A stretch of DNA of 52,088 bases from a virus. The stretch is taken from positions 1 through 52,088 of IMG/VR virus record IMGVR_UViG_3300035156_000020. One strand, given 5' to 3'. The notes under the pieces were generated by a model, which was given only the letters and a program-made list of their open reading frames with translations, had not been told where the DNA came from and ran no database searches. Positions 1 to 52,088 of this stretch are shown here, piece after piece. The position numbers and the translations under genes are program-made. Positions within the stretch are counted from its first letter, which is position 1. The number at the start of each line of letters is the position of its first letter.

Positions 1-127
1 AAGGTTGTGACCACTAACAAGAGTGTTCAATTCCATTTGTTTCCTTTGTGTTGAGACATCTGAGGGAAGGGGTGCTCAATGTCATAATTTTTGTGAGATA
101 TTATGGAGAGGTAATGCACCTATTAGC
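1..127. repeat. Terminal overlap copy 1, identical to 51962-52088. Most likely a circular-assembly overlap rather than a biological terminal repeat.
   Basis: Read directly: bases 1-127 recur verbatim at 51962-52088. The tailspike ORF 50198-51997 starts inside the right copy. Confidence 0.9.
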
Positions 128-128
128 A

Positions 129-155
129 CCCACCCCCTCACCCCCTCCCTCCCCC
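129..155 (-). other. G-quadruplex-competent tract on the minus strand (C-rich on plus; i-motif candidate).
   Basis: Plus strand has C-runs at 129-131, 133-137, 141-145, 147-149 and 151-155, separated by 1-3 nt. The minus strand reads G5-A-G3-A-G5-TGA-G5-T-G3. Confidence 0.7.
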
Positions 156-480
156 TTCGACATACAGAAATCTCCTAACATGCCTCCTGCTGCATTTGAC
201 ATAAGATGGGTTATGCGAAATACCCTGGCATACATATTGCTTAGGCACAGTCTCATGTAATGCTCATGACTTGTAGTTATATAGGCTAGAGGGATAGCGC
301 AATACACTAACCGTCCTATATTCATCATCCAGGTAGGCAATGCACTAGCAATGCATGGGTATTAACACATGAGGGGGTGCATGAGGATTAATGGCTATGA
401 CATAGCATCTATGCCTGTTACGTCCCTAGCGGGACAATAAATACCCTTGCACCGATGAGGTGCGTAATGCATTAAACATG

Positions 481-493
481 CTGCTAACAGCAG
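481..493. repeat. Short hairpin / inverted repeat CTGCT-AAC-AGCAG, a member of a four-copy family.
   Basis: ctgctaacagcag is read here. Its exact reverse complement is at 44843-44855. Related gtgctaacagcac is at 4857-4869 and gagctaacagctc at 44921-44933. All four are intergenic. Confidence 0.6.
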
Positions 494-3440: not shown

Positions 3441-3466
3441 AAAAAGGGGAGCATCTAGCTCCCCTT
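3441..3466. terminator. Hairpin terminator between convergent genes. The U-tract is present only for the minus-strand transcript.
   Basis: aaaaa GGGGAGC atcta GCTCCCC tt. Read on the minus strand, the stem is followed by TTTTT. Confidence 0.65.
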
Positions 3467-3485
3467 GCTGTAACACATCTTAAGA

Positions 3486-3986
3486 CTAGTCTTTGAGTTC
3501 TTCCAAAAGCGTTTGTACCTCGCCAAGCTCTTTTGTAAGTACTTCGCACTTCTCCCGCAAGCCATTGCGAGTCTCTTCCACTGCATCAATTTCATCGGCT
3601 TCCTTCCAGAAGGACGACATCGCCTGTTTCTGCGAGTCGAAGCTATCATCAATTTCTGGCCGATGAATGATGCGTCCGAACAGGTCGAAGAACACAGGAC
3701 GGAACACCCGCCCATCTGCTGCATTGAAGCCCTTCTGTACGCTTTCCACCAAGCCCAGCACCAAGCCATCATCCATCACATGAACCGTGTGAATCTTGGC
3801 AGCAAAGCTCTTGAGCGTGGAATCGTCAACGTAGTGCGTCCGGCCTTCCAGATTGCGCTGCGCCTGATTCAGGGGCAAGCCGGTGCGCTCAGCGAACAGT
3901 TTGAAGCCAGCTTTGCTCATGGCGCTGGCCATATCAGTGGTGCTCATTGCTGGAACTTCTGCTGCTGCTGGTTTCTTCGTAGCCAT
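3486..3986 (-). CDS. Hypothetical protein, 166 aa. It is the only minus-strand gene inside the plus-strand arm.
   Basis: GGAGAG SD upstream of the ATG. Coiled-coil-like C-terminus. The competing plus-strand ORF 3513-4043 is Cys/His/Phe-rich and looks like a shadow ORF. Confidence 0.65.
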   Translation of the reverse strand: MATKKPAAAEVPAMSTTDMASAMSKAGFKLFAERTGLPLNQAQRNLEGRTHYVDDSTLKSFAAKIHTVHVMDDGLVLGLVESVQKGFNAADGRVFRPVFFDLFGRIIHRPEIDDSFDSQKQAMSSFWKEADEIDAVEETRNGLREKCEVLTKELGEVQTLLEELKD

Positions 3987-4081
3987 TTTGTCTCTCCGGT
4001 TAGTGGTACGTCACATGACGTAGACACAGTATCAGGTAGCTAAATTCGTTTGTCAACACCCACACACAAGGAATCGTACAC

Positions 4082-4665: not shown

Positions 4666-4854
4666 GTGATTAACGCTGTCTTTGAACATCAAGACGGATA
4701 CCGCTTCAATGAAGTGTACGGAGGGAAGAAAGCTAAAGCTCAATTCCTCCGAGCATTACGCAGTGACAAAGCTACGCTTATTCATGCGATTGATGTAGAC
4801 CGTGCTTATGTGATTTACCCCTCTAATCTTCCTGATTATCGTAGGGTTCAGTAA
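4666..4854 (+). CDS. Hypothetical protein, 62 aa (GTG start).
   Basis: Track ORF. It starts 4 nt after the previous stop. Confidence 0.45.
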   Translation: MINAVFEHQDGYRFNEVYGGKKAKAQFLRALRSDKATLIHAIDVDRAYVIYPSNLPDYRRVQ

Positions 4855-4856
4855 TT

Positions 4857-4940
4857 GTGCTAACAGCACATTCATTCTAATTAACGCTAGTTAGAAGTTT
4901 GAAGTTTTATTATTTGAGCTAAAAGCTCTATTAATACTCT
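4857..4940 (+). promoter_or_regulatory. AT-rich conserved intergenic element, copy A. Function unknown: promoter, operator or origin-like.
   Basis: Hairpin gtgctaacagcac (4857-4869), TAGTTAG (4888-4894), TTTGAAG (4898-4904), 11-nt AT spacer, hairpin gagctaaaagctc (4916-4928), then atactct. The same architecture is at 44843-44951. Confidence 0.6.
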
Positions 4941-4983
4941 GATTTTCTTCTTTACTGGACAAATAAATATACAGGAGTTGTAA

Positions 4984-6471
4984 ATGCCTTTTAATGTAGG
5001 CGATAAGGTGCGTGTTATCCCCGGTGCAGCAGGGCCAGTTACCGGGCAGTACATCGGCATGACCCTCACGGTGGAGCGTGTAAGTGACTTCGGGAACATC
5101 AAGCTCCAGGAGATCGTGGGGGGTGGTTACTACGGCGCTCACAAGTTTGAGCTTATTCCTCAACCTGCTGTTGTCAAGGTTGGTGATTGGGTCGAATGCA
5201 TTGATGCGGCAGACAGCCTCACCTTGCGCATTGGTCGTCAGTACAAGGTGGAAGCTGTGTACCCTAGCGGATCGTATAAGCTGGAGGGCTTCGGCACTCG
5301 CTATCATCCGTCCCGCTTCAAGGCTGTTCCTGCGCCTAAGGCTGTGGCTGTTGCCGATGAATTCCCCTTCGACCCTGCTCTGTGGTATCCACAGGAAGGT
5401 GACAAGGTGTATGTGGTGGGTAAGTGCCCTAAAAACCACTATCCGGGGGGCATGGATAAGTATGTGAATGACGGAAAGCTGTACAAAGTCTATTCCGTGT
5501 ACGAGCCGCTTATCTACCTGAGCCATGCTAATGGCGACTCGTATTCCTGGGATAAGAGCGTCTTGCGTCCTGAATGGGCAGGCAAGAAAGCACAGCCCAA
5601 GCCTGCAACCTTGGCCGTACCGGATGGGCCTGTGGCCCCGTATGTGCCACCTGATGTGCCTGCTGAGCCAAACAGCACCCTCCGTGAAGACCTGTTCAAG
5701 CGTATTCCCGGTGGTGGCCTGTGTGACTTCGCCTTTGAAGGCAAGACCGGCATGCAAGACTTCCAGACAGCAGCCCCGTGCCATGCTGCCCTGTCCCGCC
5801 CTAACGTGGGTGCTGAGGTGGTGGCAATGGCGTATTGCCTCCGTAGTGATGTCAAGCGTTATGGGGGTGCTGACATCAAAGCGTACAAACGCTACATGGA
5901 CTACATCTTCAATCGCTCCCCTTGGGCACATGCATTCCTCACCAAGGATGTGAACGAAGCCATGGAGAAGGACATCCTCATGAACGTGGAAGTCAATCGC
6001 TTCGTCATGGCTGGTGCTTGCTTGGCTGTCCGTATGGCACACGAATACAGCAATCGCCCTACCGCCTTCGTCTACTTCGTGGACAAGGGCATTGGTGAGC
6101 ATGCGGCATGGGTATTGTGCTGTGCTCTCACCGTCCGTGGTAATAACTTCTCCCGTGCTGGCATGGGTGGCGGTCATGACCTGATTGACCATCATCGTGA
6201 CATGGCTGAACTGGTGAAGTTCTTCCAGGTGGGCTATCACACAGCACAGGGGACTGACCCCAACCCCTACCGACTGGCACATGGGGGCTATCGTATTGCC
6301 GATCCTGTGGCGAAGTATACGAGCAACGCTCTACATAGCCTCCGTGGCTGGCTGGATGCCAACATGAAGGCCACTGTAACTGGCGAAGGCTGGAACAAGA
6401 AATCCGCCATCACCGAAGAAGCAGTATTAACCGCTGCTGCAACCCTCAACAAACTCATTACCGGAGCGTAA
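4984..6471 (+). CDS. Cassette gene 1: 495-aa protein. It has three tandem SH3/KOW-like beta-barrel repeats plus a C-terminal domain of about 270 aa with unknown function.
   Basis: AGGAG SD. Repeats begin VGDKVRVI, VGDWVECI and EGDKVYVV and end FELIP, RFKAV and VLRPEW. Confidence 0.85.
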   Translation: MPFNVGDKVRVIPGAAGPVTGQYIGMTLTVERVSDFGNIKLQEIVGGGYYGAHKFELIPQPAVVKVGDWVECIDAADSLTLRIGRQYKVEAVYPSGSYKLEGFGTRYHPSRFKAVPAPKAVAVADEFPFDPALWYPQEGDKVYVVGKCPKNHYPGGMDKYVNDGKLYKVYSVYEPLIYLSHANGDSYSWDKSVLRPEWAGKKAQPKPATLAVPDGPVAPYVPPDVPAEPNSTLREDLFKRIPGGGLCDFAFEGKTGMQDFQTAAPCHAALSRPNVGAEVVAMAYCLRSDVKRYGGADIKAYKRYMDYIFNRSPWAHAFLTKDVNEAMEKDILMNVEVNRFVMAGACLAVRMAHEYSNRPTAFVYFVDKGIGEHAAWVLCCALTVRGNNFSRAGMGGGHDLIDHHRDMAELVKFFQVGYHTAQGTDPNPYRLAHGGYRIADPVAKYTSNALHSLRGWLDANMKATVTGEGWNKKSAITEEAVLTAAATLNKLITGA

Positions 6472-6472
6472 C

Positions 6473-7087
6473 ATGAACGTCCTCATCATCAATGGCGGCA
6501 GCGACTATCGCAAGCTGTTTGAATCCCTCGGCCACACGATCGTGGCTAACGTAGAAGATGCTCAACTGGCTGTCTTCACTGGCGGCGCCGACGTTTCCCC
6601 CAAGCTGTACGGGGCTGAGAAGCATCCGTTCACTGGTGTGGATGCACGCCGTGACATCATGGAAAAGACGCTCTACGAGGCTCTGCTGGCTCGTAAAGTG
6701 CCAATGGTGGGCATCTGCCGTGGTGCTCAATTCCTTAATGTCATGTCCGGTGGTGCGATGTACCAGCACGTAGAAAGCCATACCCGTGCCCACTACATCA
6801 TCGACCAGGTTACGGGGGAAACGGTGTATGTGTCGTCTACCCATCACCAGATGATGAAGCCATTCGGCATCTTCCACCTCATTGCTACCAGCAACAACAA
6901 CGGCAATCGTGAATGGTTTGAGGGCAGCGTATTCAAGCGTGATGTGGCCGATCAAGACATCGAAGTGGTGTTCTACCCCAACACCAAATGCCTGTGCTTC
7001 CAGCCCCATCCTGAATTCGATGGTGCGGAATACGAAGGCATGAAAGCCTACTTCCGTTCGCTGCTCAACCGTTATCTGGAGGTGTAA
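6473..7087 (+). CDS. Cassette gene 2: class I glutamine amidotransferase fold, peptidase C26 / gamma-glutamyl hydrolase-like (PuuD-like).
   Basis: Nucleophile elbow VGICRGAQFLNV and the downstream SSTHHQMM motif typical of the C26 family. Confidence 0.8.
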   Translation: MNVLIINGGSDYRKLFESLGHTIVANVEDAQLAVFTGGADVSPKLYGAEKHPFTGVDARRDIMEKTLYEALLARKVPMVGICRGAQFLNVMSGGAMYQHVESHTRAHYIIDQVTGETVYVSSTHHQMMKPFGIFHLIATSNNNGNREWFEGSVFKRDVADQDIEVVFYPNTKCLCFQPHPEFDGAEYEGMKAYFRSLLNRYLEV

Positions 7088-7089
7088 TC

Positions 7090-7461
7090 ATGACTCTTGA
7101 CGAGTTTTGGACAGCTACCGGGATTGGCCGTTGGGACATGCGTAACAACGACGACCACCTCCCGTGTTTCGCTAACCGTTATTACGTGAATGGGCGTGTA
7201 AACACCCCCGAACTCATCACGGCATACATCGACCTCGCAAAGCAAACTTGCACTAACGATGTCATCGTGTTCAGCGTGACGGAGAAAGATGAATGCTGGG
7301 ATGTGTGGAAGCAGTACGCCAAGGACAACAAGAGCGTGTTCAAGGTGGTGCAAGGTGGTTCCATTCATGGTGTGTATCTGTGCCGGATGTACATCTACAC
7401 CAAGCCGAAGGAAGAACGTAAGTTCCATGAGAATAACATCGGCAAGTACCGCGCTCGATAA
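7090..7461 (+). CDS. Cassette gene 3: hypothetical protein, 123 aa.
   Basis: Track ORF. It starts 3 nt after the previous stop. Confidence 0.7.
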   Translation: MTLDEFWTATGIGRWDMRNNDDHLPCFANRYYVNGRVNTPELITAYIDLAKQTCTNDVIVFSVTEKDECWDVWKQYAKDNKSVFKVVQGGSIHGVYLCRMYIYTKPKEERKFHENNIGKYRAR

Positions 7462-7510
7462 ATAACAGGTGGCTTAGGCCGCTATCATTAAACATTAAAC
7501 AAGGATTGAT

Positions 7511-8869
7511 ATGTGCGGTTTGGTTGGCATTGCAGGTGATTTGAACAACGTTCACGAGAAGGTGCTTAAAACCCTGCTCGTCCTCGATTCCCTCCGTGGT
7601 GAGGATTCGACTGGTGTTGCCTTCGTTAGCAAGTTCATGGATGAAGTGACGGTTGCCAAGTCGTTGGGTGACCCGTTCAACCTGTTCAACGATGGCAAGT
7701 TTCACAAGGCCCAACAGCGTCAGAATAAGGTGATGCTCGGCCACAACCGCTACGCTACCTCCGGTGGTGTCAACAAGGCGGGTGCCCATCCCTTCGACTA
7801 CGATACGCTGGTAGGTGCCCACAATGGCACTCTCGGCGCTCGTTATCGTCTGGATGATGACCGTGATTTCAAGGTGGACAGCCAGGCGCTCTATCACAAC
7901 ATCGAAAAGAACGGTGTTAAGGAAACCATCCGTCGCCTTGGTGGTCAAGGCAATGCATGGAGCTTGGTGTGGTGGGACAAGATTGAAAAGACCTTGAACT
8001 TCCTCCGCAATCAGGAACGTCCGATGCATATGTGCTCATCGGAAGATGGCAAGGCACTGTTTTGGGCATCGGAAGCTTGGATGTTGGATGTGGCCTTGGC
8101 TCGTCACAGCATCAAGCACAACGAAATCTTCCAGACCGCTGTAGACACTCACCTGAGCGTTTACATCAACAACAAGGGCGAGCTTGGCAAGCCTAAGGTT
8201 GTCGAAGTGAAGGCAGACCCCGTTGTTGTGCCGGTTGTGCAGATGTACCCACATGCCAAGCCTAAGCACATCCCGAAACCCCAACAACAGCAAAGCAATG
8301 TTGTTGTCCTGACCAAGGATGCACAGACCCCCGGTGAGGTGGGGCAGGCAAAAAAGTACGAAGCCGTAAATCCAAAAGGATCAGCATCAAACACCTCCTA
8401 TCTGTCAGCCACAATTGACCGCACCTTTGAAATCCTGTGCGAGAAGCGTGATGCTAACGGTGGCCGGTATCTGAGCCTGTTCGATGCGAACGAACCATAC
8501 ATTGACATTCGCCTCTATCCATGCAAGCAAGATGAAGTCTTGTTTCAATTGGAAGGCTCGGACATTCAAGGGCGTGTTACGAGCTTTGACAGCACGGATG
8601 GCGGCGCGCTGCGTCCCTACTACAAGGTGAGTCCTTGGACTGTCAAGTATGACGCCACCCTTGCCGAAGCAAACATTCCTGATGTCGTAATGGATCATCT
8701 TGGCCGTTTGGTTACGGCTAAGGAATGGAATAAGAATTACATTGCTTGCGCTTGGTGCAGCAGTGGTTTGAATCATCTGGAAGACAATCGCTTTACCGCT
8801 GGTGGTGATTGCCTTTGCCCTGCATGTGCAGCAGATGAAAAAGTAACTGAGAACGTCACCCTAATCTAA
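7511..8869 (+). CDS. Cassette gene 4: Ntn-type (class II) glutamine amidotransferase domain, fused to an unknown domain of about 220 aa with a terminal Cys4 zinc ribbon.
   Basis: Starts MCGLVGIAG (Cys directly after the initiator Met), then GHNRYATSG and GAHNGTL. The C-terminus has CAWCSS...CLCPAC. Confidence 0.85.
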   Translation: MCGLVGIAGDLNNVHEKVLKTLLVLDSLRGEDSTGVAFVSKFMDEVTVAKSLGDPFNLFNDGKFHKAQQRQNKVMLGHNRYATSGGVNKAGAHPFDYDTLVGAHNGTLGARYRLDDDRDFKVDSQALYHNIEKNGVKETIRRLGGQGNAWSLVWWDKIEKTLNFLRNQERPMHMCSSEDGKALFWASEAWMLDVALARHSIKHNEIFQTAVDTHLSVYINNKGELGKPKVVEVKADPVVVPVVQMYPHAKPKHIPKPQQQQSNVVVLTKDAQTPGEVGQAKKYEAVNPKGSASNTSYLSATIDRTFEILCEKRDANGGRYLSLFDANEPYIDIRLYPCKQDEVLFQLEGSDIQGRVTSFDSTDGGALRPYYKVSPWTVKYDATLAEANIPDVVMDHLGRLVTAKEWNKNYIACAWCSSGLNHLEDNRFTAGGDCLCPACAADEKVTENVTLI

Positions 8870-8880
8870 CGGAGTTTTAA

Positions 8881-9681
8881 ATGAGCAAACAGCAAATCCT
8901 GGTCGGCTGCGACCCTGAAGTTTTCGTCAAGAAGAATGGCATCTTCCAATCGGCCTATGGCCTGATTAAGGGGGACAAGGCCAACCCTCAACCTGTGGAA
9001 CGTGGTGCTGTCCAAGTGGATGGTATGGCTCTGGAATTCAATATCAACCCGGCTGCAACCGAGGCTGAATTTGTCCTGAGCGTCCAAACCGTGTTCGATA
9101 CCATGTGCAAGATGGTGCCGGGTTATGAAGTTGTTGCCGTGCCGGTGGCTGACTTCGATGCTGACTACCTGAAAGCCCAACCAAAAGAAGCATTGGAACT
9201 TGGTTGTGACCCCGATTATAACGCATGGACTTCCACTGTCAACCCCCGTCCTGATGGTGACCGTCCTATGCGTACTGCTTCGGGGCATGTCCATGTGGGC
9301 TGGACGAATGGCGAAGAGATTGGCAACCTCGATCATCAAAGCCGTTGCAACATGCTCATTCAGCAGCTTGACTTCTACTTGGGTCTGCCAAGCCTGATGT
9401 ACGACACGGATGCTCGTCGCCGTGAGATGTATGGCCGTGCGGGTGCATGCCGCTACAAGAGCTACGGTGTGGAATATCGCACCCTGTCGAATGCATGGCT
9501 CACCAGCAAGGAACGTATGGCATGGGTGTTCCGTGCTACCCAGGAAGCTGTTGCTCAGGCAATGGCAGGCAACCTGCTCGTGGAGAAGTTTGGTGACATC
9601 CAAGACATCATCAATACCTCCGATGTCAAGGGTGCCAAGCGCATCATCAAGGCTGCAAAGCTGGAGGTGTGTGGTGCTTGA
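8881..9681 (+). CDS. Cassette gene 5: glutamine-synthetase-fold COOH-NH2 ligase (the phage phiEco32-like COOH-NH2_lig family).
   Basis: N-terminal LVGCDPEVFV, plus MALEFNI and SGHVHVGW motifs recalled for this family. Confidence 0.75.
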   Translation: MSKQQILVGCDPEVFVKKNGIFQSAYGLIKGDKANPQPVERGAVQVDGMALEFNINPAATEAEFVLSVQTVFDTMCKMVPGYEVVAVPVADFDADYLKAQPKEALELGCDPDYNAWTSTVNPRPDGDRPMRTASGHVHVGWTNGEEIGNLDHQSRCNMLIQQLDFYLGLPSLMYDTDARRREMYGRAGACRYKSYGVEYRTLSNAWLTSKERMAWVFRATQEAVAQAMAGNLLVEKFGDIQDIINTSDVKGAKRIIKAAKLEVCGA

Positions 9682-9802
9682 GAAGTTTGTTAGCTGGTCA
9701 CTGGTCACCTTCGGGATCGTAGTGCTGGGGGCGTGTACGGTATGGGTTTGCGCCAACCTTGTTGACAGTATCTTTTCCCTTCCTTATTGGAGTGCTTGCT
9801 AA
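9674..9802 (+). CDS. Possible 42-aa membrane micro-protein (GTG start).
   Basis: GGAGG (9663-9667) lies 6 nt upstream of the GTG. Hydrophobic stretch SWSLVTFGIVVLGACTVWVCANLV. It exactly fills the gap between the two flanking genes. Confidence 0.35.
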   Translation: MLEKFVSWSLVTFGIVVLGACTVWVCANLVDSIFSLPYWSAC

Positions 9803-10432
9803 ATGCCATTAGAAGTTCCTGTAGACGACCTGCGCCGTGACTTCGTAGGTTGTGTGGTGATGTTCAAGAACAAGCCCGTGTACGTCCTCCATGTGTCTCT
9901 GGATGGCACTGTGATGTATCGGGATATGTTCAGCCAGCGTGACGAGATGGCCCCCTTCACCCTGAAGGAATTCGGCAAGCCTGTTCCTCGTATTGGCTTT
10001 GTCAACATCAACAACTCGGTGGTGTACGTTAGCCGTTCCCCTGTCCGTAAGTATTACATGGGGGTGAGCTTGCAGAACATCGAATGCAAACTGATTATGG
10101 GCGTGGACTACCCGAACGGTAGCCAAGCAACTAAGCAGCGCATTCAAACGCTGTGCATTCCCGAAATGGCAGACGCTATCACGAACAAATACCCATCCTT
10201 GGCTGATGCAGCCGAGAAGGTGAAGAAGTTCGGTGGTGCTTGTGCATTCGACAAGCAATTCGCAATCAGTGCTAACAAGGACATCTTCTACAAAGGTGAG
10301 CCTGTTGGCCTTTGTGCCCTCACTGCTAAAGGTACTGCTGATATTCAGTGGAACGAAGGCAAACAATATCTTTCAATTCTTTTGGACGGAAACCATGAAA
10401 AAACTGTACGAGATTTTAGGCCAGCGGCTTAA
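9803..10432 (+). CDS. Cassette gene 6: hypothetical protein, 209 aa.
   Basis: Track ORF. The ATG immediately follows the TAA of the micro-ORF. It overlaps the next gene by 38 nt. Confidence 0.7.
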   Translation: MPLEVPVDDLRRDFVGCVVMFKNKPVYVLHVSLDGTVMYRDMFSQRDEMAPFTLKEFGKPVPRIGFVNINNSVVYVSRSPVRKYYMGVSLQNIECKLIMGVDYPNGSQATKQRIQTLCIPEMADAITNKYPSLADAAEKVKKFGGACAFDKQFAISANKDIFYKGEPVGLCALTAKGTADIQWNEGKQYLSILLDGNHEKTVRDFRPAA

Positions 10433-11441
10433 CAAGGGTGATGTTGGCGTTGAGATTGAAGTCGAAGGTCAACGGTTGCCGGATGACGTTGACGCTCGTT
10501 GGAACGCTACCGTGGATGGCTCCCTTCGTGGTGAGAATCGGGAGTATGTCATGCGTAAGCCGTTGCCTCTTGCCGAGGTTAAGGATGCCCTGACCTGTCT
10601 CGCACAGAACCTGAAGGACAACAAGGCTAAGCCTGACTTCTCCTTCCGCACTTCGGTGCATGTCCACATCAACTGCCAGGAACTGACGTACAACCAATAC
10701 CTCAACTTCCTGTACACCTACTTCCTGCTGGAAGAACCCCTGATGACGTTCTGTGGTCGTGAACGTAAGGGCAATCGCTTCTGCCTCCGTCTGCAAGATG
10801 CAGAGGGCATGTTGGAAACGTTCAACCGGATGTTCCAGTTCCAGGAAGAGGATGGTTTTGCTCACATCCCGCCTAACAAGGTGCGCTATTCGGCTATGAA
10901 CATCGAAGCCACTACCAAGTACGGTAGCTTGGAGTTCCGTGGCATGAAGGGCAACATGGATGTGGACTACATCAACGATTGGGTGATGGCAATCAGCTAC
11001 CTGCGTGCCTTCGCTCAGTCGGTGGAAGACCCCACGAAGGTGTATGACCTGTACGCCGAACTGGAAGCACAGGGCTTCATGGAGCATGTTCTGAAAGAGC
11101 TTGCACCGAAGTTCTACTATGCCCGTGCCAGCCGTGATGTGCAGCGTAGCTTCTCCCTGTCGCTTGACCTGCCTTTCCGCTTCGGTGAACAGGCAGCGAT
11201 TCGTAAGGCTGCTCAGAAGCGTGTAGCCCCTCGTGCTCCAAAGGCGATGCGTGTCCCCGATGTCATTGAGCCTGTGCAGATGCCTGACCCGCAAGTGGTT
11301 CACGCTGGAATCATGCGTAACAACCCTGCTGCTGACATCCTTGCACAGTTCAACGACCCGTTTGCTCGTCGTCTGCGTGCCGATGCTGCCCCTCGTGCTG
11401 TTCCTGTCCGTCCCCGTGCAATCATCCGTGATGAGTTCTAA
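10395..11441 (+). CDS. Cassette gene 7: second, different glutamine-synthetase-fold amidoligase (Amidoligase_2-like).
   Basis: Internal ATG of track ORF 10233-11441. Motifs GVEIEVEG, DGSLRGENREYVM, SVHVHIN and GSLEFRGMKG. Confidence 0.8.
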   Translation: MKKLYEILGQRLNKGDVGVEIEVEGQRLPDDVDARWNATVDGSLRGENREYVMRKPLPLAEVKDALTCLAQNLKDNKAKPDFSFRTSVHVHINCQELTYNQYLNFLYTYFLLEEPLMTFCGRERKGNRFCLRLQDAEGMLETFNRMFQFQEEDGFAHIPPNKVRYSAMNIEATTKYGSLEFRGMKGNMDVDYINDWVMAISYLRAFAQSVEDPTKVYDLYAELEAQGFMEHVLKELAPKFYYARASRDVQRSFSLSLDLPFRFGEQAAIRKAAQKRVAPRAPKAMRVPDVIEPVQMPDPQVVHAGIMRNNPAADILAQFNDPFARRLRADAAPRAVPVRPRAIIRDEF

Positions 11442-11444
11442 TCC

Positions 11445-12194
11445 ATGAAAATCTACCCATACAAACAAGGGAGTAAGAGTGCTGCTGCTTTGGCTGCTGC
11501 ACTGAATGTCAAGCAATTGAAGCATGAGGGCAAGCCTATCAAGGTGAAGGGTGTCCTCATCAATTGGGGGGCATCGGTTATTGTCCCTCGTGTTGTCCTT
11601 GACGGAGGTGTTCAGGTGCTTAACGTACCTGGTGCCATTGCCAAGGCAAGTAACAAGCTGGCTTCCTTTAAAGCCCTCACTGAGGCAAAGGTGAGTGTCC
11701 CTGAGTGGACTGAAAGCAAAGATGTGGCTAAGGCTGCAATCGAAGCTGGCTTTGCTGTGGTGTGTCGCACCAAGTTGAATGGTCATAGCGGGGATGGCAT
11801 TGTTATTGCTGAAACCCTTGACCAACTCGTTGATGCTCCCCTCTACACCAACTACATCAAGAAGAAAGAGGAATACCGTATCCACGTATTCCAAGGGGAA
11901 GCTTTCTTCGTACAGCGTAAAGCTCGTAAGATGGAAGTGCCTGACGAACAAGTGAACTGGAAGGTTCGCAATCTGGCCGGTGGTTTTATCTTCGCTAACA
12001 AAGATGTGGAGGTTGCAGATGACGCACGAGTTCAAAGCATTGCTGCTGTGGGTGCTCTCTCCCTTGATTTCGGCGCTGTTGATGTCATTCTTGGCTCAGA
12101 TGGCAAGTTCTATGTCCTAGAAATCAACACGGCCTGTGGTCTTGAAGGAACCACCTTGGAGAAATATGTCCAGCAGTTCCAGAAATTCCAGTAA
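11445..12194 (+). CDS. Cassette gene 8: ATP-grasp ligase (RimK-like size).
   Basis: EEYRIHVFQGEAF, NLAGGFIF and DFGAVDVILGSDGKFYVLEINTACGL (the E-x-N metal-binding motif). Confidence 0.85.
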   Translation: MKIYPYKQGSKSAAALAAALNVKQLKHEGKPIKVKGVLINWGASVIVPRVVLDGGVQVLNVPGAIAKASNKLASFKALTEAKVSVPEWTESKDVAKAAIEAGFAVVCRTKLNGHSGDGIVIAETLDQLVDAPLYTNYIKKKEEYRIHVFQGEAFFVQRKARKMEVPDEQVNWKVRNLAGGFIFANKDVEVADDARVQSIAAVGALSLDFGAVDVILGSDGKFYVLEINTACGLEGTTLEKYVQQFQKFQ

Positions 12195-14461: not shown

Positions 14462-14652
14462 TGAGAGAAATTCTTGGCTACTCGTTGGTGGAAGATAAGG
14501 GGGACGGTGAGAGTTGTGTCCACTATTACAAAACTCTTGAAGCAGCACAGGCCCATTACGATTGGGTTTGGGCAGAGTTTGGATATGGAGCAGAAGAACC
14601 CTCCGCTGTTACCCCTTCCGACTTTGAAGACGAGTTTGTAAAGCCTTGGTAA
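14461..14652 (+). CDS. Hypothetical acidic protein, 63 aa.
   Basis: Track ORF. TAATG coupling to the upstream gene. Confidence 0.55.
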   Translation: MREILGYSLVEDKGDGESCVHYYKTLEAAQAHYDWVWAEFGYGAEEPSAVTPSDFEDEFVKPW

Positions 14653-15122
14653 ACAAGGTATTAGAAGATCACTTCAAAGCCAACTACGGCAGGCTGATGA
14701 AGCGCATGAGATTCCGTGCTGGTACGGACTGGGATGCGGAGGATGTAATCCAGGAGGCTTATTGTCGTGCTCTGAAGTATTTCAAGACGTATGACGGTGA
14801 GCATCTTGACCAGTGGTTCAGCACTATCCTTAATAACACGTTCAGGGATTACAAAAGGAATGAGAGGGGTTTTAGTACCATATCGTTTGAGGAAGAAGAA
14901 CTTGACGGTGTGGCCTGTAGCTCTGTTCCTGATCGTGTTATGTTTGAAATTAAGCAGCGTATTGAAGGCAAGCCTCCTGAACAGCGGGAGGTGTTGCATC
15001 GGTATTTTCTTGAGAGTTATACGGTGAGGGAGATTTCTGAAATCACTGGATACGCTCTTGAGGCTGCGTTCAAGCTGGTTAAACGCTTCAAGACTAATGA
15101 ATTGGAGGGCAGGTATGCGTAA
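14646..15122 (+). CDS. Sigma-70 family (ECF-like) sigma factor.
   Basis: Region-2-like DAEDVIQEAYCRALKYF and region-4 helix-turn-helix-like REVLHRYFLESYTVREISEITGYALEAAFKLVKR. TTG start overlaps the upstream stop. Confidence 0.7.
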   Translation: MVNKVLEDHFKANYGRLMKRMRFRAGTDWDAEDVIQEAYCRALKYFKTYDGEHLDQWFSTILNNTFRDYKRNERGFSTISFEEEELDGVACSSVPDRVMFEIKQRIEGKPPEQREVLHRYFLESYTVREISEITGYALEAAFKLVKRFKTNELEGRYA

Positions 15123-24784: not shown

Positions 24785-24792
24785 ATAAAAAG

Positions 24793-24830
24793 AAACCCCC
24801 TATAGCGATTAAGCCGTAGGGGGTTTTTCT
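24793..24830. terminator. Bidirectional rho-independent terminator at the convergence point of the two arms.
   Basis: A-run, CCCCCTA (24796-24802), 14-nt loop, TAGGGGG (24817-24823), then tttttct. Confidence 0.7.
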
Positions 24831-24849
24831 ATTTGTGCTGCTGTAAAGC

Positions 24850-42306: not shown

Positions 42307-42323
42307 TTGTGTCCCTAGAAACG

Positions 42324-42359
42324 AAAAAAGGGGAGCAGAGCTTTTACACCCTGCCCCCC
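42324..42359 (-). terminator. Rho-independent terminator / attenuator after the capsid genes.
   Basis: Minus strand reads GGGGGGCAG..loop..CTGCTCCCC, followed by TTTTTT. Confidence 0.6.
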
Positions 42360-42366
42360 TATTAAA

Positions 42367-42849
42367 TTACTTAGCTTTGCTAATGTAAGTCAGAATCAGC
42401 GTTGCTTTACCAGCAGTACCCGTAACAGCAGGAGTCGTACCAGTCAGAGCTTTGTTAAGCTTCGACACAGCGGTGACACCAGTGCCCGAGTTGATTGCCA
42501 GTTGGCCTGTACCTGTCGAAGCAGGAATCTTAGTACCAACCGAACTCAGTTCAGCTTGAGTCAGTGCAACACCGTTAGCAACTTCCGAGCCTTGAATACC
42601 ATACACGACACCAGGAGTAGTACCTGTCAGCGTGAATGCCTCATCCACTCGCAGCACTGCCTTAGTCAGCAGAGCACCCTTTGGAAGGGTGACCGGGGGG
42701 ATGAATGCCGTGTTAAGGAACTCAGGCGTGAGGCTAATCGACAGAACATGATGAGAATTCTCACCATGCTCCAGACCGATCGAACCACCCGTTTCACGAG
42801 CACCATATTGGTTAAAGACGCCGATACCAGCTTTATTTTCGTAAGACAT
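42367..42849 (-). CDS. Probable head decoration or minor capsid protein, 160 aa.
   Basis: Immediately downstream of the major capsid gene. Gly/Thr-rich. Confidence 0.55.
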   Translation of the reverse strand: MSYENKAGIGVFNQYGARETGGSIGLEHGENSHHVLSISLTPEFLNTAFIPPVTLPKGALLTKAVLRVDEAFTLTGTTPGVVYGIQGSEVANGVALTQAELSSVGTKIPASTGTGQLAINSGTGVTAVSKLNKALTGTTPAVTGTAGKATLILTYISKAK

Positions 42850-42862
42850 ATTTTATTCCTTA

Positions 42863-43804
42863 TTAGGCGTTGATAGCCGAGGTGATGTACACACCAAGGG
42901 TGTCAACACGTTGAGTGCCGAAGCCGAAGCGCGACGAGGTGACGAATTCATCACGGCGGAGGTCTTTGTTACGTTCGCCCTCAACCTTAGGCATACGACG
43001 CCATGCAGCCATCAGAGGCTTGGTGTTATCGTCAGCGACACACATGAAGACGTTAGCGACAGCATTGCTAACCTGAGTGGTGCCATCCGAGAACGTACCA
43101 GTTGCCAGGCGGTTCGATGTGATGATGTTCCAGCCATACAGATTCATCAAGAACTGGTGGTCACGAGTGAAACCGTTCTGGAGGATTTGTTCTGCAAATG
43201 GGGTGACATCACGACCAATGTTCACCAGACCGTCAAGCGTAGCGCCTACGATAGGGTCAACGATGGCAACACGACCAGCCATGGGGACGTTAGCTTTGTC
43301 GAATGCCAGCTTCATCTTAATGAAGGCATCCAGAGTAGCAACGTTGTTCGTAGCAGCCGAGGCGATACGGTGAGCAAAGCCATTAACGGTATTAGCGTTG
43401 GCATTCACTTGGGCCGTGTTACAACGACGCAGGAAGCGCGATTCAAACACCTCTTGGATAGCACGGGTCGATTCAGTCGAACGTGCCGACATCAGGGCTT
43501 CAACTTGAGCGCCATCTTCACGGAGTTCATCAGTGACATACCATGCATCGCCAACGTAGTCGGTAATGGTGAGGGTCACTTCACCCGATTCGATTGGGCT
43601 GTAGTCGAACGGAACTTCTTCAGCACCGTCTTGAATGGTGACAGTACCAGTGGTCTTAATATGTAGCGTGTTACCCGAACCGAAGTCCGACACGTTACGA
43701 TAGAACGAACCAGGAAGCATACCGTCATGGAGGTTCTGGAGGATGAAGCTAGAATACTGTTCTGCTTCGATAAATGCAGTGCTGTTAGAGCGATTTTGCG
43801 ACAT
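42863..43804 (-). CDS. Major capsid protein (HK97 fold).
   Basis: 313 aa. Its position after the scaffold gene, and its resemblance to PaP3/LUZ24-type major head proteins (from memory). Confidence 0.85.
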   Translation of the reverse strand: MSQNRSNSTAFIEAEQYSSFILQNLHDGMLPGSFYRNVSDFGSGNTLHIKTTGTVTIQDGAEEVPFDYSPIESGEVTLTITDYVGDAWYVTDELREDGAQVEALMSARSTESTRAIQEVFESRFLRRCNTAQVNANANTVNGFAHRIASAATNNVATLDAFIKMKLAFDKANVPMAGRVAIVDPIVGATLDGLVNIGRDVTPFAEQILQNGFTRDHQFLMNLYGWNIITSNRLATGTFSDGTTQVSNAVANVFMCVADDNTKPLMAAWRRMPKVEGERNKDLRRDEFVTSSRFGFGTQRVDTLGVYITSAINA

Positions 43805-44672: not shown

Positions 44673-44748
44673 TGGTGCCACCTGTAGGAATCGAACCTAC
44701 GACCAGATGCTTACAAAGCAACTGCTCTACCAACTGAGCTAAGGGGGC
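44673..44748 (-). tRNA. tRNA-Thr (anticodon UGU), 76 nt with encoded CCA.
   Basis: Folded by hand: GCCCCCT/AGGTGGC acceptor (one C-U mismatch), D arm GCTC-AGTTGGTA-GAGC, anticodon loop TT-TGT-AA, T arm GTAGG-TTCGATT-CCTAC. Confidence 0.8.
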
Positions 44749-44815: not shown

Positions 44816-44842
44816 AAAAGAGAAAGAGGTACTAGATATATA

Positions 44843-44951
44843 CTGCTGTTAGCAGAACTAATAAAACTTCTAACTTAACTCTATTGTTTATTTAGTAGTT
44901 AGTTTGAAGAGTTATTCATAGAGCTAACAGCTCATATATTTCATATATACT
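44843..44951. promoter_or_regulatory. AT-rich conserved element, copy B: two inverted copies of the element at 4857-4940.
   Basis: Minus-oriented: agttagaagttttattagtt plus ctgctaacagcag (44879 down to 44843). Plus-oriented: TAGTTAG (44896), TTTGAAG (44903), 11-nt spacer, gagctaacagctc (44921-44933), then atactct. Confidence 0.6.
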
Positions 44952-44985
44952 CTCTAATACCTGTTTTTTAGGTTTTGTTGGACAA

Positions 44986-45228
44986 CTATTTTTCAATTAG
45001 TGAAAGAATTTCGCTAATAGCCCTTTCATACCCCCTAGCGTCAGCTTGGAGGTATGCCCAATTGGGAGAACTATATGCGTCCTTACTAATACTTCCTGCA
45101 TGAGAAGACCTACTACGTTCCTCAAGCAACTCCTTTAGGCGTGCTCGCATGATAGCTGAGGCGTCAAAGTCCTTAGCTACCTCTTCAGCACGTTCCTTAG
45201 AGAGTCCTTTCTTCCAAGCGGTCTTCAT
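44986..45228 (-). CDS. Hypothetical protein, 80 aa.
   Basis: Track ORF. 4-nt overlap with the portal stop. Confidence 0.6.
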   Translation of the reverse strand: MKTAWKKGLSKERAEEVAKDFDASAIMRARLKELLEERSRSSHAGSISKDAYSSPNWAYLQADARGYERAISEILSLIEK

Positions 45229-50197: not shown

Positions 50198-51997
50198 TTA
50201 GGAGACAGAGTAAGAGAGCCTCACACTACCGCCTGTGAACTCAGCATTATCAATACGCCTCAAACGGATGGTGATGGCAGAAGCCGTTGTCTGAGGATCG
50301 GAAAACTTATAGATGGCAATCATCGGCTGCTCCAGGTTGTCGCCTTGCCCAATCAACACACACTCAGGCTTATCAACAAACAAACCAACAGGGATGTTGA
50401 TTACGTGGTCGGAGTATGTCCCATTGACCGCCATAGGAACAACAACACTGCCCTGATACGGAACCTTAGGAATAACCTTGTTACCCACACCGTTGTTCGT
50501 TACCGCGTTAGAACAGTTGAGGAACTTGTTATTCAAACCAACGTGTACGCTGGAGGTATCTGTACTGAGAACAATACCGCTGTCCATCGACACAATGATG
50601 TTCTGGTCAATAACGGACGACTCAGTACCACTACCAGCCAACACCACAATACCGTTCTTGTTGGCAGCGCCAGAGAGGTAGTAGAGGACGTTGTTAGTAA
50701 TGATTGCAGCGAGGTCTGTACCAGGTACATCAATCTTCATCTGGATGTTGGCAGAGAGCGTTGCAGCCAGATTGGAGAAGTTCTGAATGTACAGGAGGTT
50801 ACCGTTGATGATTTGCTGTACAACGTTCACCGTATTCACACAAGCCTCTGTAGCGTTGATGTGACTGTTCACAATGGACAGCAGGGGCTTGCTCAGTGTC
50901 GTAGTCCAGTTGACGCCTGTACGAACCGCTACGAAGGCACATTGACTCAAGTACACACCCTCTGTAGTGCCTGTGACGTAAAGAGCATTCTTCACGAAGT
51001 AGACACGGCATTGGCTGAACTGAAGCTCTACAGGGGACGCATCACCAACCACCTCAAAGCCATACGAGCTATTCACTGTGGCGCTAGAACGATCCCCAAG
51101 GATACGGACGTTACGCACACTAATGTTACGTGCATTGTCAAATCGGAAGGCACTACGGAAGCCATACAGAGGGCCAGTACCGCTTACTTCACAATCCTCG
51201 ATAACAACCGTAGACGACGTACCACCAGCACCACCAACCCACACAATATCCACAACAGGCTTAGTGTTCTGATTGGTAGTACGGAAACCTACGCCATACA
51301 GAGAAAGCTCATTACCTTGATACTCTGCCTGTGTCCCACCTGAATACACCAGGTTGACGTTTGTACCGAAGACAATGTTAGACAGGCCAGCACCGTTACC
51401 CACTAACGTCAAACTACCATTAGCTGTTAGGTTACCCCCAACATAGTAGTTGCCATCAATGAACAGAGGCAGCTTGTTAGCAATGGCAGCATTAATAGCT
51501 GCTTGCATCTTCACTGTGTTGTTAGTACCCGTTGTACCATTCCAATCAGGCACAGCACCGAAGTCTTTAGGACTGATACGCTCCTGAAGCTTACTGGTGA
51601 TGGTACGGCTAACACCTCCCGTATAAGGAGAGACATACACCTTCGTAGCAGCCAGGTCACTCTCTACAATCTCTAACACCTCTTCAATAGCTCCCTGTAC
51701 GTTATCAGAGCTAATCTCGTTAGTGGGGCTGAATGTAATGAAGTTGGCTGTCTGTCCTGCCAGTCCTGCTATAGCGTTCTTAACATCCTTAAACCGTGCT
51801 GGATGGCTATCTGCTGTTGGAGCAGGGAGGTTGTACAGCTTCTTCCCATTGAGGTCTAGATTCACCTGTAAGGCATTGTCTACACCATCAGGATTGTCCC
51901 TGTACAGTACTTGCTCGTTGAATGCATCAGCAATCTTACGGAAGTTCTCATTGATCTGCGTAAGGTTGTGACCACTAACAAGAGTGTTCAATTCCAT
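50198..51997 (-). CDS. Tailspike 3: same N-terminal anchor domain as tailspike 1, plus a beta-helix domain.
   Basis: INENFRKIADAFNEQVLYRDNP...NGKKLYNLPAP, then SPKDFGAVPDWNG...AAINAAI. The start codon lies inside the right copy of the terminal overlap. Confidence 0.8.
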   Translation of the reverse strand: MELNTLVSGHNLTQINENFRKIADAFNEQVLYRDNPDGVDNALQVNLDLNGKKLYNLPAPTADSHPARFKDVKNAIAGLAGQTANFITFSPTNEISSDNVQGAIEEVLEIVESDLAATKVYVSPYTGGVSRTITSKLQERISPKDFGAVPDWNGTTGTNNTVKMQAAINAAIANKLPLFIDGNYYVGGNLTANGSLTLVGNGAGLSNIVFGTNVNLVYSGGTQAEYQGNELSLYGVGFRTTNQNTKPVVDIVWVGGAGGTSSTVVIEDCEVSGTGPLYGFRSAFRFDNARNISVRNVRILGDRSSATVNSSYGFEVVGDASPVELQFSQCRVYFVKNALYVTGTTEGVYLSQCAFVAVRTGVNWTTTLSKPLLSIVNSHINATEACVNTVNVVQQIINGNLLYIQNFSNLAATLSANIQMKIDVPGTDLAAIITNNVLYYLSGAANKNGIVVLAGSGTESSVIDQNIIVSMDSGIVLSTDTSSVHVGLNNKFLNCSNAVTNNGVGNKVIPKVPYQGSVVVPMAVNGTYSDHVINIPVGLFVDKPECVLIGQGDNLEQPMIAIYKFSDPQTTASAITIRLRRIDNAEFTGGSVRLSYSVS

Positions 51998-52088
51998 TTG
52001 TTTCCTTTGTGTTGAGACATCTGAGGGAAGGGGTGCTCAATGTCATAATTTTTGTGAGATATTATGGAGAGGTAATGCACCTATTAGC
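51962..52088. repeat. Terminal overlap copy 2 (identical to 1-127).
   Basis: Direct comparison of both ends. Confidence 0.9.

Follow-up and report, generated by a model that had tools for sequence, protein, structure and literature searches.

The early promoters of phage N4, which are used by its virion RNA polymerase, carry a promoter-associated DNA hairpin with a stem of 5-7 bp and a loop of 3 nt, and the non-conserved bases of the stem are free to vary as long as pairing is kept. Extrusion of the N4 hairpin is driven by supercoiling (PMC4496689). We analysed a viral DNA stretch of 52,088 nt (IMG/VR record IMGVR_UViG_3300035156_000020; hereafter the window), in which hairpins with the same freedom of stem sequence recur within ordered intergenic modules. 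N4 promoters have a conserved GC-rich core and a G-purine-A loop centred at -11, whereas the loops of these modules are AAC, AAA, GAA or TTC and their stems are variable; the hairpin here lies between two AT-rich boxes at middle or late positions, in contrast to the early promoters of N4. The N4 promoters are read by a T7-like polymerase domain that is part of a virion protein of 3500 aa, and no gene for such a polymerase was found in the window phage.

A small extrudable hairpin in the spacer of a promoter for bacterial polymerase is known from an engineered rrnB-N4 construct (Dai et al. 1997, as described in PMC4496689). The N4 promoter hairpin, inserted between the -35 and -10 elements of the rrnB promoter, made activity supercoiling-dependent and abolished it in vivo unless gyrase was inhibited (PMC4496689). 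That construct is artificial, whereas the modules, whose extrusion is putative, are natural, conserved and present in several copies. Promoters read by phage sigma factors (SPO1 gp28/gp34 and T4 gp55, and phiEco32 as cited for this family in PMC9960094) resemble our case in that the phage has a sigma gene and no polymerase of its own. A further likeness is that a few conserved promoter sequences, unlike those of the host, stand at middle and late gene blocks; the sigma factor of the window phage differs in being ECF-like. To our knowledge, a conserved, covarying palindrome that fills the spacer occurs in none of the SPO1, T4 gp55 and phiEco32 promoter classes. Lastly, Arbiol et al. are said to have described, in 2010, the PeSLs of T4-type phages as short, repeated intergenic cassettes of a promoter and a stem-loop. 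PeSLs share with the modules the occurrence of paralogous copies within one genome (here modules A and B, over ~100 nt), and differ in that their promoter is an early one for host sigma-70, with the stem-loop placed outside it as a terminator.

A paper on the family Zobellviridae, to which the window phage is related, states only that transcription must be regulated differently, and gives no promoter analysis (PMC9960094). No description of the promoters of Zobellviridae-like phages was found in the literature searched.

Genome organization and the phage sigma factor

The first 127 bases of the window (1-127) were identical to its last 127 bases (51962-52088), an overlap that includes the start of the tail-fibre gene, indicating that the window is a complete genome, assembled as a circle of 51,961 bp, whose coordinate 1 is arbitrary. 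The capsid protein was 74% identical to its counterpart in Salinivibrio phage CW02, and the identity was 69% for Klebsiella phages Asterion and Klyazma. These three phages and Pseudomonas phage PA11 belong to the Zobellviridae or are close to that family, and we assign the genome to a Zobellviridae-like podovirus. The genes form a plus-strand and a minus-strand arm (Table 1), and GC skew tracks gene orientation.

The predicted sigma factor matched Pfam Sigma70_r2 (1.5e-10) and, weakly, region 4, and scored 54.2 bits with NCBIfam TIGR02937 (sigma70-ECF; cut-off 42.9). Its best relatives of solved structure are SigH and SigE, and it is 43% identical to the sigma factor of PA11. The ECF-type class of sigma factors needs both promoter boxes. 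No family match to an RNA polymerase was obtained when ~40 of the larger ORFs were compared with PHROGs and ten proteins, including those of 1579, 620 and 412 aa, with Pfam, a search that a highly divergent enzyme could escape. A gene of phage Asterion annotated as a "decoy of host sigma70" (L068, 3726-3938) had no detectable homologue in the window, and the decoy gene therefore cannot be used in support of a sigma switch.

Table 1. Features of the window phage, with the corresponding tRNA slot of its relatives
Feature	Position	Strand	Remarks
Type II module	401-445	-	Points towards late genes; back to back with the hairpin at 481-493. Parts: GGTATTTATT 445-436; hairpin GTCCC-GCTA-GGGAC 435-422 (4-nt loop); conserved box GTAACAGGCATAGATGC
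Hairpin CTGCT-AAC-AGCAG (CTGCTAACAGCAG)	481-493	+	Divergent early/late control region; points towards early genes
Plus-strand genes	~600 to 24,707	+	Small early genes first
Hairpin GTGCT-AAC-AGCAC (GTGCTAACAGCAC)	4857-4869	-	2 nt past the stop codon of a conserved 62-aa ORF (4666-4854)
Module A (type I)	4888-4940	+	Points at first cassette gene, ATG 4984. Parts: TAGTTAG 4888-4894; TTTGAAG 4898-4904 (GAAG 4901-4904); 11-nt spacer TTTTATTATTT 4905-4915; box U TTATT 4907-4911; hairpin GAGCT-AAA-AGCTC (GAGCTAAAAGCTC) 4916-4928; box D TATTAATACT 4929-4938; ATACTCT 4934-4940
Amidoligase / glutamine-amidotransferase / COOH-NH2-ligase cassette	4984-12194	+	
ECF-type sigma factor	14646-15122	+	PHROG 1740; candidate reader of the modules
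Rest of plus arm		+	Primase-helicase (T7-type), HNH endonuclease, DNA polymerase, exonuclease, thymidylate synthase, ribonucleotide reductase
Minus-strand genes	51,997 down to 24,850	-	Tail fibre, terminase, portal, 80-aa protein, scaffold, major capsid, tail, internal virion proteins
tRNA-Thr (UGU)	44673-44748	-	First gene downstream of module C; scaffold gene ATG 44655
Module C (type I)	44832-44880	-	Points at tRNA-Thr, scaffold gene and major capsid gene. Parts: AGTTAG; GAAG 44870-44867; TTATT 44864-44860; hairpin CTGCT-AAC-AGCAG 44855-44843; box D TATATATCTAG 44842-44832
Module B (type I)	44896-44953	+	Directed into the 80-aa and portal genes, antisense to both. Parts: TAGTTAG 44896-44902; TTTGAAG 44903-44909 (GAAG 44906-44909); TTATT 44912-44916, within the 11-nt spacer; hairpin GAGCT-AAC-AGCTC (GAGCTAACAGCTC) 44921-44933; AT-rich box ending in ATACTCT 44947-44953
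tRNA slot in relatives	L061 9909-9984; L063 8208-8282; L065 7984-8059; L066 9831-9987		

Several other features were noted along the genome. A stretch of about 1.1 kb (1450-2590) has no convincing ORF; a terminator-like hairpin (1453-1476) and sigma-70-like promoters (1697-1726 and 1835-1863) lie in it, and its products may be non-coding RNAs or early proteins of very small size. Comparable ORF-poor stretches occur in L061 and L066. Within the plus-strand early region lies a minus-strand unit (3444-4056) with a sigma-70-like promoter (4056-4028), an ORF (3986-3486) and a strong terminator (3466-3444), and relatives have one or two genes of opposite orientation at this place (L069 8198-8913). 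Strong GC-rich terminators were seen between the convergent gene arms (~24790-24835) and, on the minus strand, after the gene following the major capsid gene (~42323-42359); these are what real terminators look like in this genome. A C-rich tract at 128-160 (+), which is G-rich in the late direction and reads GAAGGGGGAGGGAGGGGGTGAGGGGGTGGGTG then AGGTGCATTAC, lies within the ~380-nt non-coding leader of the late genes. This tract is conserved in L061 (~3670-3700), L063 (~145-185), L064 (~1115-1150) and even PA11 (L072, ~42830-42870), and could be a G-quadruplex, a packaging signal or a genome-end region.

Anatomy and placement of the modules

Three full copies of one oriented module (type I; A, B and C) were found in the genome, together with three further hairpins that have partial or different flanks (4857-4869, 481-493 and 422-435). 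The six hairpins form three back-to-back pairs, 59-78 bp apart, one in the early/late control region, one before the amidoligase cassette and one before the tRNA-scaffold-capsid genes, and both modules and pairs occur only at gene-block boundaries. The elements that a first-pass annotation had named in 4857-4940, at the locus of module B and at 481-493 were each found where stated. Its count of two module copies and the 481-493 hairpin was too low, as a third full copy lies on the minus strand (module C, hairpin 44843-44855); the hairpin at 422-435, a further member, and the tRNA-Thr gene had been missed as well.

The anatomy of the module was derived from 18 modules of the window and seven relatives, aligned on the hairpin without gaps. 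A loosely conserved upstream stretch, (T)AGTTAG / GTTGTT, is followed by box U (G-TTTATT), in which ATT at -7..-5 from the stem is invariant in 18/18 modules and a T stands at -2, and then by the hairpin. Box D, TAT(T/A)(A/T)AT..ACT, comes directly after the stem (0-1 nt). TTATT ends 4 nt before the 13-nt hairpin and the distance from box U to box D is 17-18 bp in all 18 modules. The 5-bp stem and the 3-nt loop make up a perfect palindrome of 13 bp, which takes up the whole spacer except for 4 bp. Boxes 17-18 bp apart match the layout of -35 and -10 elements in promoters of the sigma-70 family, for which a fixed spacing of 16-18 bp is expected. Which box would correspond to -35 and which to -10 is uncertain, because conservation is higher in box U than in box D and ACT lies anywhere from 4 to 13 nt beyond the stem; box U may be the main recognition element, with a start in or just after the hairpin, or a -10-like element, with a start inside the hairpin. 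The order of elements and the 11-nt spacer first described for module A do recur at the second locus. The spacing of ATACTCT does not, being 5 nt from the hairpin in one copy and 13 nt in the other, and this variation rules out ATACTCT as a fixed-distance element.

Recurrence of the module exceeded chance, as had been claimed: GCTAAMAGC occurred 6 times against 0.97 expected, a count reached by none of 100 shuffles, and the 26-nt pattern GAAGNNTTATTN6GCTAAMAGC occurred in three exact copies, with 0.07 matches expected at up to 3 mismatches. The segments 4879-4931 and 44840-44892 form the longest inverted repeat of the genome. Because the modules had been found by requiring perfect hairpins, an independent test was made with a position weight matrix (PWM) built from the module flanks of the relatives alone, with the hairpin columns ignored. 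This PWM ranked the three window modules at the top, with 24.9 (A), 22.1 (C) and 14.6 bits, the next match having 10.8, and each of the top three had 5/5 stem pairs, which have a background frequency of 0.001. A covariance model built from the 18 modules matched in the window only the three full modules (A, 48.1 bits, E 9.5e-6; C, 47.1 bits; B, 42.3 bits) and, weakly, the 4857 hairpin on the plus strand (26.4 bits, E 0.21).

The loci of A and of B/C are the most AT-rich 130-nt windows of the genome (26-29% GC against 49%), which bears out the earlier remark that the gap before gene 4984 is unusually rich in A and T. This composition and the divergent pairs would also suit replication elements, either bidirectional origins, as pairs centred on AT-rich DNA, or single-strand hairpin signals for the T7-type primase-helicase that this phage has along with a DNA polymerase. 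Small DNA hairpins with GNA loops are found at priming sites and origins (PMC13037366), and many module loops are GAA or TTC. A role in replication, which the first-pass annotation had listed as an origin-like element, is nevertheless improbable in our view: there are three loci in one 52-kb genome with orientation fixed towards the downstream genes, loops of the GNA type make up only about half, iterons and DnaA boxes were not found, and GC skew just follows gene orientation.

As single strands, the hairpins were weak, folding with -3.8 to -5 kcal/mol and z-scores of -1.3 to -2.6; the case for them is made on conservation, not on folding energy. The 5-bp stems, at these energies and with no T-run in A, B or C, would make poor intrinsic terminators, which have a stable GC-rich stem and then a T-run; this agrees with the first-pass annotation, and only the 4857 hairpin and B were flagged by a lax rule. 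A longer palindrome reaching into the flanks (TATTA..TAATA) was not supported, as its outer pairs formed in 40% of cases, the chance level for AT-rich DNA. The window modules bear no resemblance to the sigma-70-like early promoters found elsewhere in this genome, and a sigma-70 consensus scan gave matches at chance level at the A and B/C loci.

Ahead of the amidoligase cassette, module A has positional homologues upstream of the first cassette gene in L066 (stem ATATC), L069 (a 12-nt variant), L070 (CTGCT) and L071 (GAGCT). It points towards the cassette in 5/5 genomes, with a hairpin in four of them and the variant in the fifth. L071 also has a GTGCT hairpin after the stop codon, at the same place as in the window, with the minus-strand flank TATTAATGACT. 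On the minus strand, the 4857-4869 hairpin (folding -4.9 kcal/mol) reads as a degenerate partner standing back to back with module A; on the plus strand, it may be a weak or leaky terminator of early transcription. In L066 (~330-290, -), L069 (9905-9960) and L070 (1295-1340), a poly-C run and another hairpin (GGAGCTAAGC..TTAGCT) come after module A; the window has neither.

Modules A and B are alike as far as the element GGACAA(A/C)TA at 4957-4972 and 44980-44994. Downstream of A, this T-rich-ended element stands just before the ribosome-binding site of gene 4984; downstream of B, it overlaps the end of the 80-aa gene on the opposite strand, and it also follows A and B in relatives.

The hairpins of B (44921-44933) and C (44843-44855) stand back to back in the gap that separates the scaffold gene from the 80-aa gene, an arrangement kept with different stems in 7/7 relative contigs, so that a hairpin occupies both positions in 8/8 genomes. 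Among the relatives, the stem of B is GAGCT, GATAC, CTCTC or CTGCT, and that of C is CTGCT, CTGCC, GTCTC or CAATC. Module C points towards the tRNA or scaffold gene in all eight genomes. Directly behind it, five of the eight have a tRNA of differing kind (Thr, Gly, Asn, or Gly and Glu), and such settling of different tRNA genes is expected behind a strong transcription start. An extra ORF is inserted in the tRNA slot between module C and the scaffold gene in L063 and L064.

In the early/late control region, the 481-493 hairpin lies ~90 nt upstream of a sigma-70-like early promoter, and the same hairpin is found at the same place in L064 and L066; PA11 has GTGCTAACAGCAC in its own control region. 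The type II module paired with it shares box U with type I and likewise has a 5-bp stem, but its downstream box is different. L064 and L061 both conserve this module, the latter with a 3-nt loop, and in L066 its stem shows a compensatory change (GTCAC..GTGAC). The pair is thus present in L061, L064 and L066.

Just upstream of each late-side hairpin pair, a GGTATTAG / GGTATTAC box was noted in the late direction (44954-44961 and 519-526, both -), at the same place in L061-L067. At the B/C locus, a TTGTC motif is found 20 nt upstream, a distance that is conserved, and more distant relatives have GGGGTATAT at the place of the box. The family-wide GGTATTAG / GGGGTATAT box could be a separate promoter element, possibly the real late promoter.

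Conservation and covariation among relatives

Closer relatives were found in a large protein collection through their scaffold proteins (62-72% identity), and their contigs were fetched. The modules, which the first-pass annotation had proposed to look for in related genomes, were present at the same places and in the same orientation in seven to ten metagenomic relatives. Scans with the scaffold protein of IMG/VR viral and JGI metagenome contigs gave distant relatives only (<=55% identity), nucleotide searches of deposited phages gave nothing alignable, and an exact-motif scan of viral contigs gave four single matches, all by chance, in coding DNA without a hairpin. With the covariance model, no type I module was found in Asterion, CW02 or PA11, indicating that type I modules are specific to the clade of the window. 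More distant relatives have other small hairpins beside TATA-rich or GGGTATAT boxes at the same place.

All five stem pairs covaried in the 18 modules: every pair (100%) was Watson-Crick, and both sides had changed in 36 of 90 cells, counts that are not independent events, as the relatives share ancestry. Slid-alignment controls gave 21-49% pairing. The position next to the stem paired in 0/18 modules and the stem was never longer than 5 bp; a 5-bp stem with a 3-nt loop was found in 20/21 positional homologues. The loop centre was always A or T (AAC, AAA, GAA, TTC, TTT and GTT), and the stems ranged from GAGCT to ATATC. Stems differed even within one genome, as in L063 (GATAC..GTATC and CTGCT..AGCAG) and L062 (GAGCT/AGCTC and CTGCC/GGCAG), and the outer stem pairs of the window are GA, CT and GT. 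No G·T (G·U) pair occurred among the ~100 stem pairs of positional homologues. The fixed size of 13 nt, the free sequence with strict pairing, the lack of wobble pairs and the directional flanks in both orientations together point to a constraint on DNA, in which both strands would be able to pair, rather than on RNA.

The same data bear on the idea of an RNA-level role, in which the hairpins would be stem-loops in leaders or at 3' ends, flanked by AU-rich RNase E sites, or weak terminators, and would control the processing or stability of polycistronic mRNAs and tRNA precursors. Some of the surroundings fit this idea, namely the intergenic spacers adjoining tRNA genes, the AU-rich flanks, and the 4857 hairpin directly after a stop codon, flagged as terminator-like. 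We give it little probability: besides the missing G·U pairs, the stems are very weak and without U-tracts, one of each pair of oppositely oriented copies would read differently in RNA, and a scan of the whole window against Rfam matched, at gathering score, no family other than tRNA.

That palindrome sequence is free while pairing is strictly kept suggests that the palindrome acts as a DNA structure, a hairpin or cruciform, and not as a sequence-specific site. A dimeric operator with CTGCT/AGCAG half-sites, one of the candidates of the first-pass annotation, is disfavoured by stems that vary within a genome and change in compensatory fashion between genomes. A broader possibility is that the modules are not promoters themselves and instead are operator- or enhancer-like sites that regulate nearby promoters, bound by a DNA-binding protein, encoded by phage or host, that is architectural or recognises structure. 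Such a protein would account for the back-to-back hairpin pairs 59-78 bp apart at three loci, the exact palindrome size with its A/T centre, the hairpins without full flanks at 481-493 and 4857-4869, and the conservation of the GCTAACAGC core as far as PA11, while the separate conserved GGTATTAG box could be the actual promoter. We regard this as possible and rather unlikely, since the differing stems speak against a sequence-specific dimer, profile scans gave no candidate regulator gene (the small early proteins being without family matches), and the directional flanks with their -35/-10-like spacing would be left unexplained.

Promoter reading, proposed mechanism and implications

The position of the modules at block boundaries, the orientation of A and C, the tRNAs behind C, the -35/-10 spacing, a sigma factor without a polymerase and the dissimilarity to the early promoters led us to read the modules as phage-specific middle or late promoters, probably used by host core polymerase with the phage sigma factor. 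We put the chances of this reading at about even. What the sequences show directly is the build of the modules, their conservation and covariation, and where and in which direction they lie; from this we infer promoter activity, the sigma factor as reader, the part played by each box and the function of the hairpin. Module A in 5/5 genomes, module C in 8/8 and also the type II module stand upstream of a transcription unit and share its orientation. Against promoters speak module B and the 4857 hairpin, both antisense to genes, and the differing downstream box of type II. Promoters for the phage sigma factor were among the candidates proposed at the outset, and this one is the best supported, through the ECF-type sigma gene, the boxes 17-18 bp apart and the co-orientation of A and C at gene-block boundaries, with the one conserved antisense copy counting against it.

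In the mechanism that we propose, host core RNA polymerase carrying the phage ECF-type sigma factor (14646-15122) would read the modules, with a structure-forming DNA hairpin filling the 17-18-bp spacer between the boxes. The palindrome would be either a feature recognised by the transcription machinery or a topology-dependent switch. As a switch, it would silence the promoter on supercoiled DNA, where extrusion would collapse the distance between the boxes, and free it again once the DNA is relaxed or replicating and the spacing is restored. The spacer hairpin could be a built-in topology sensor: on the supercoiled genome, just after injection, the middle and late genes would be kept silent, to be released when the DNA is relaxed and replicating. 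Alternatively, the holoenzyme might recognise the hairpin structure positively. Back-to-back pairs might further couple two promoters through transcription-generated supercoiling. That the modules are natural promoters of bacterial multi-subunit RNA polymerase, directed by a phage ECF sigma factor and with the extrudable spacer hairpin as part of the mechanism, is a bold proposal that we consider distinctly unlikely.

For Zobellviridae-like podoviruses, which lack an RNA polymerase, the modules offer a testable candidate for a phage-specific promoter class. So far, conservation of structure and not of sequence in the spacer is a principle known from N4, with its single-subunit polymerase, and from an artificial construct in E. 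coli, and a promoter with a hairpin in its spacer would be an unusual design for bacterial RNA polymerase. If the proposal is true, it would be a second, independent use of small DNA hairpins in the control of transcription, and the module would be a compact promoter part, specific to one sigma factor and possibly sensitive to DNA topology.
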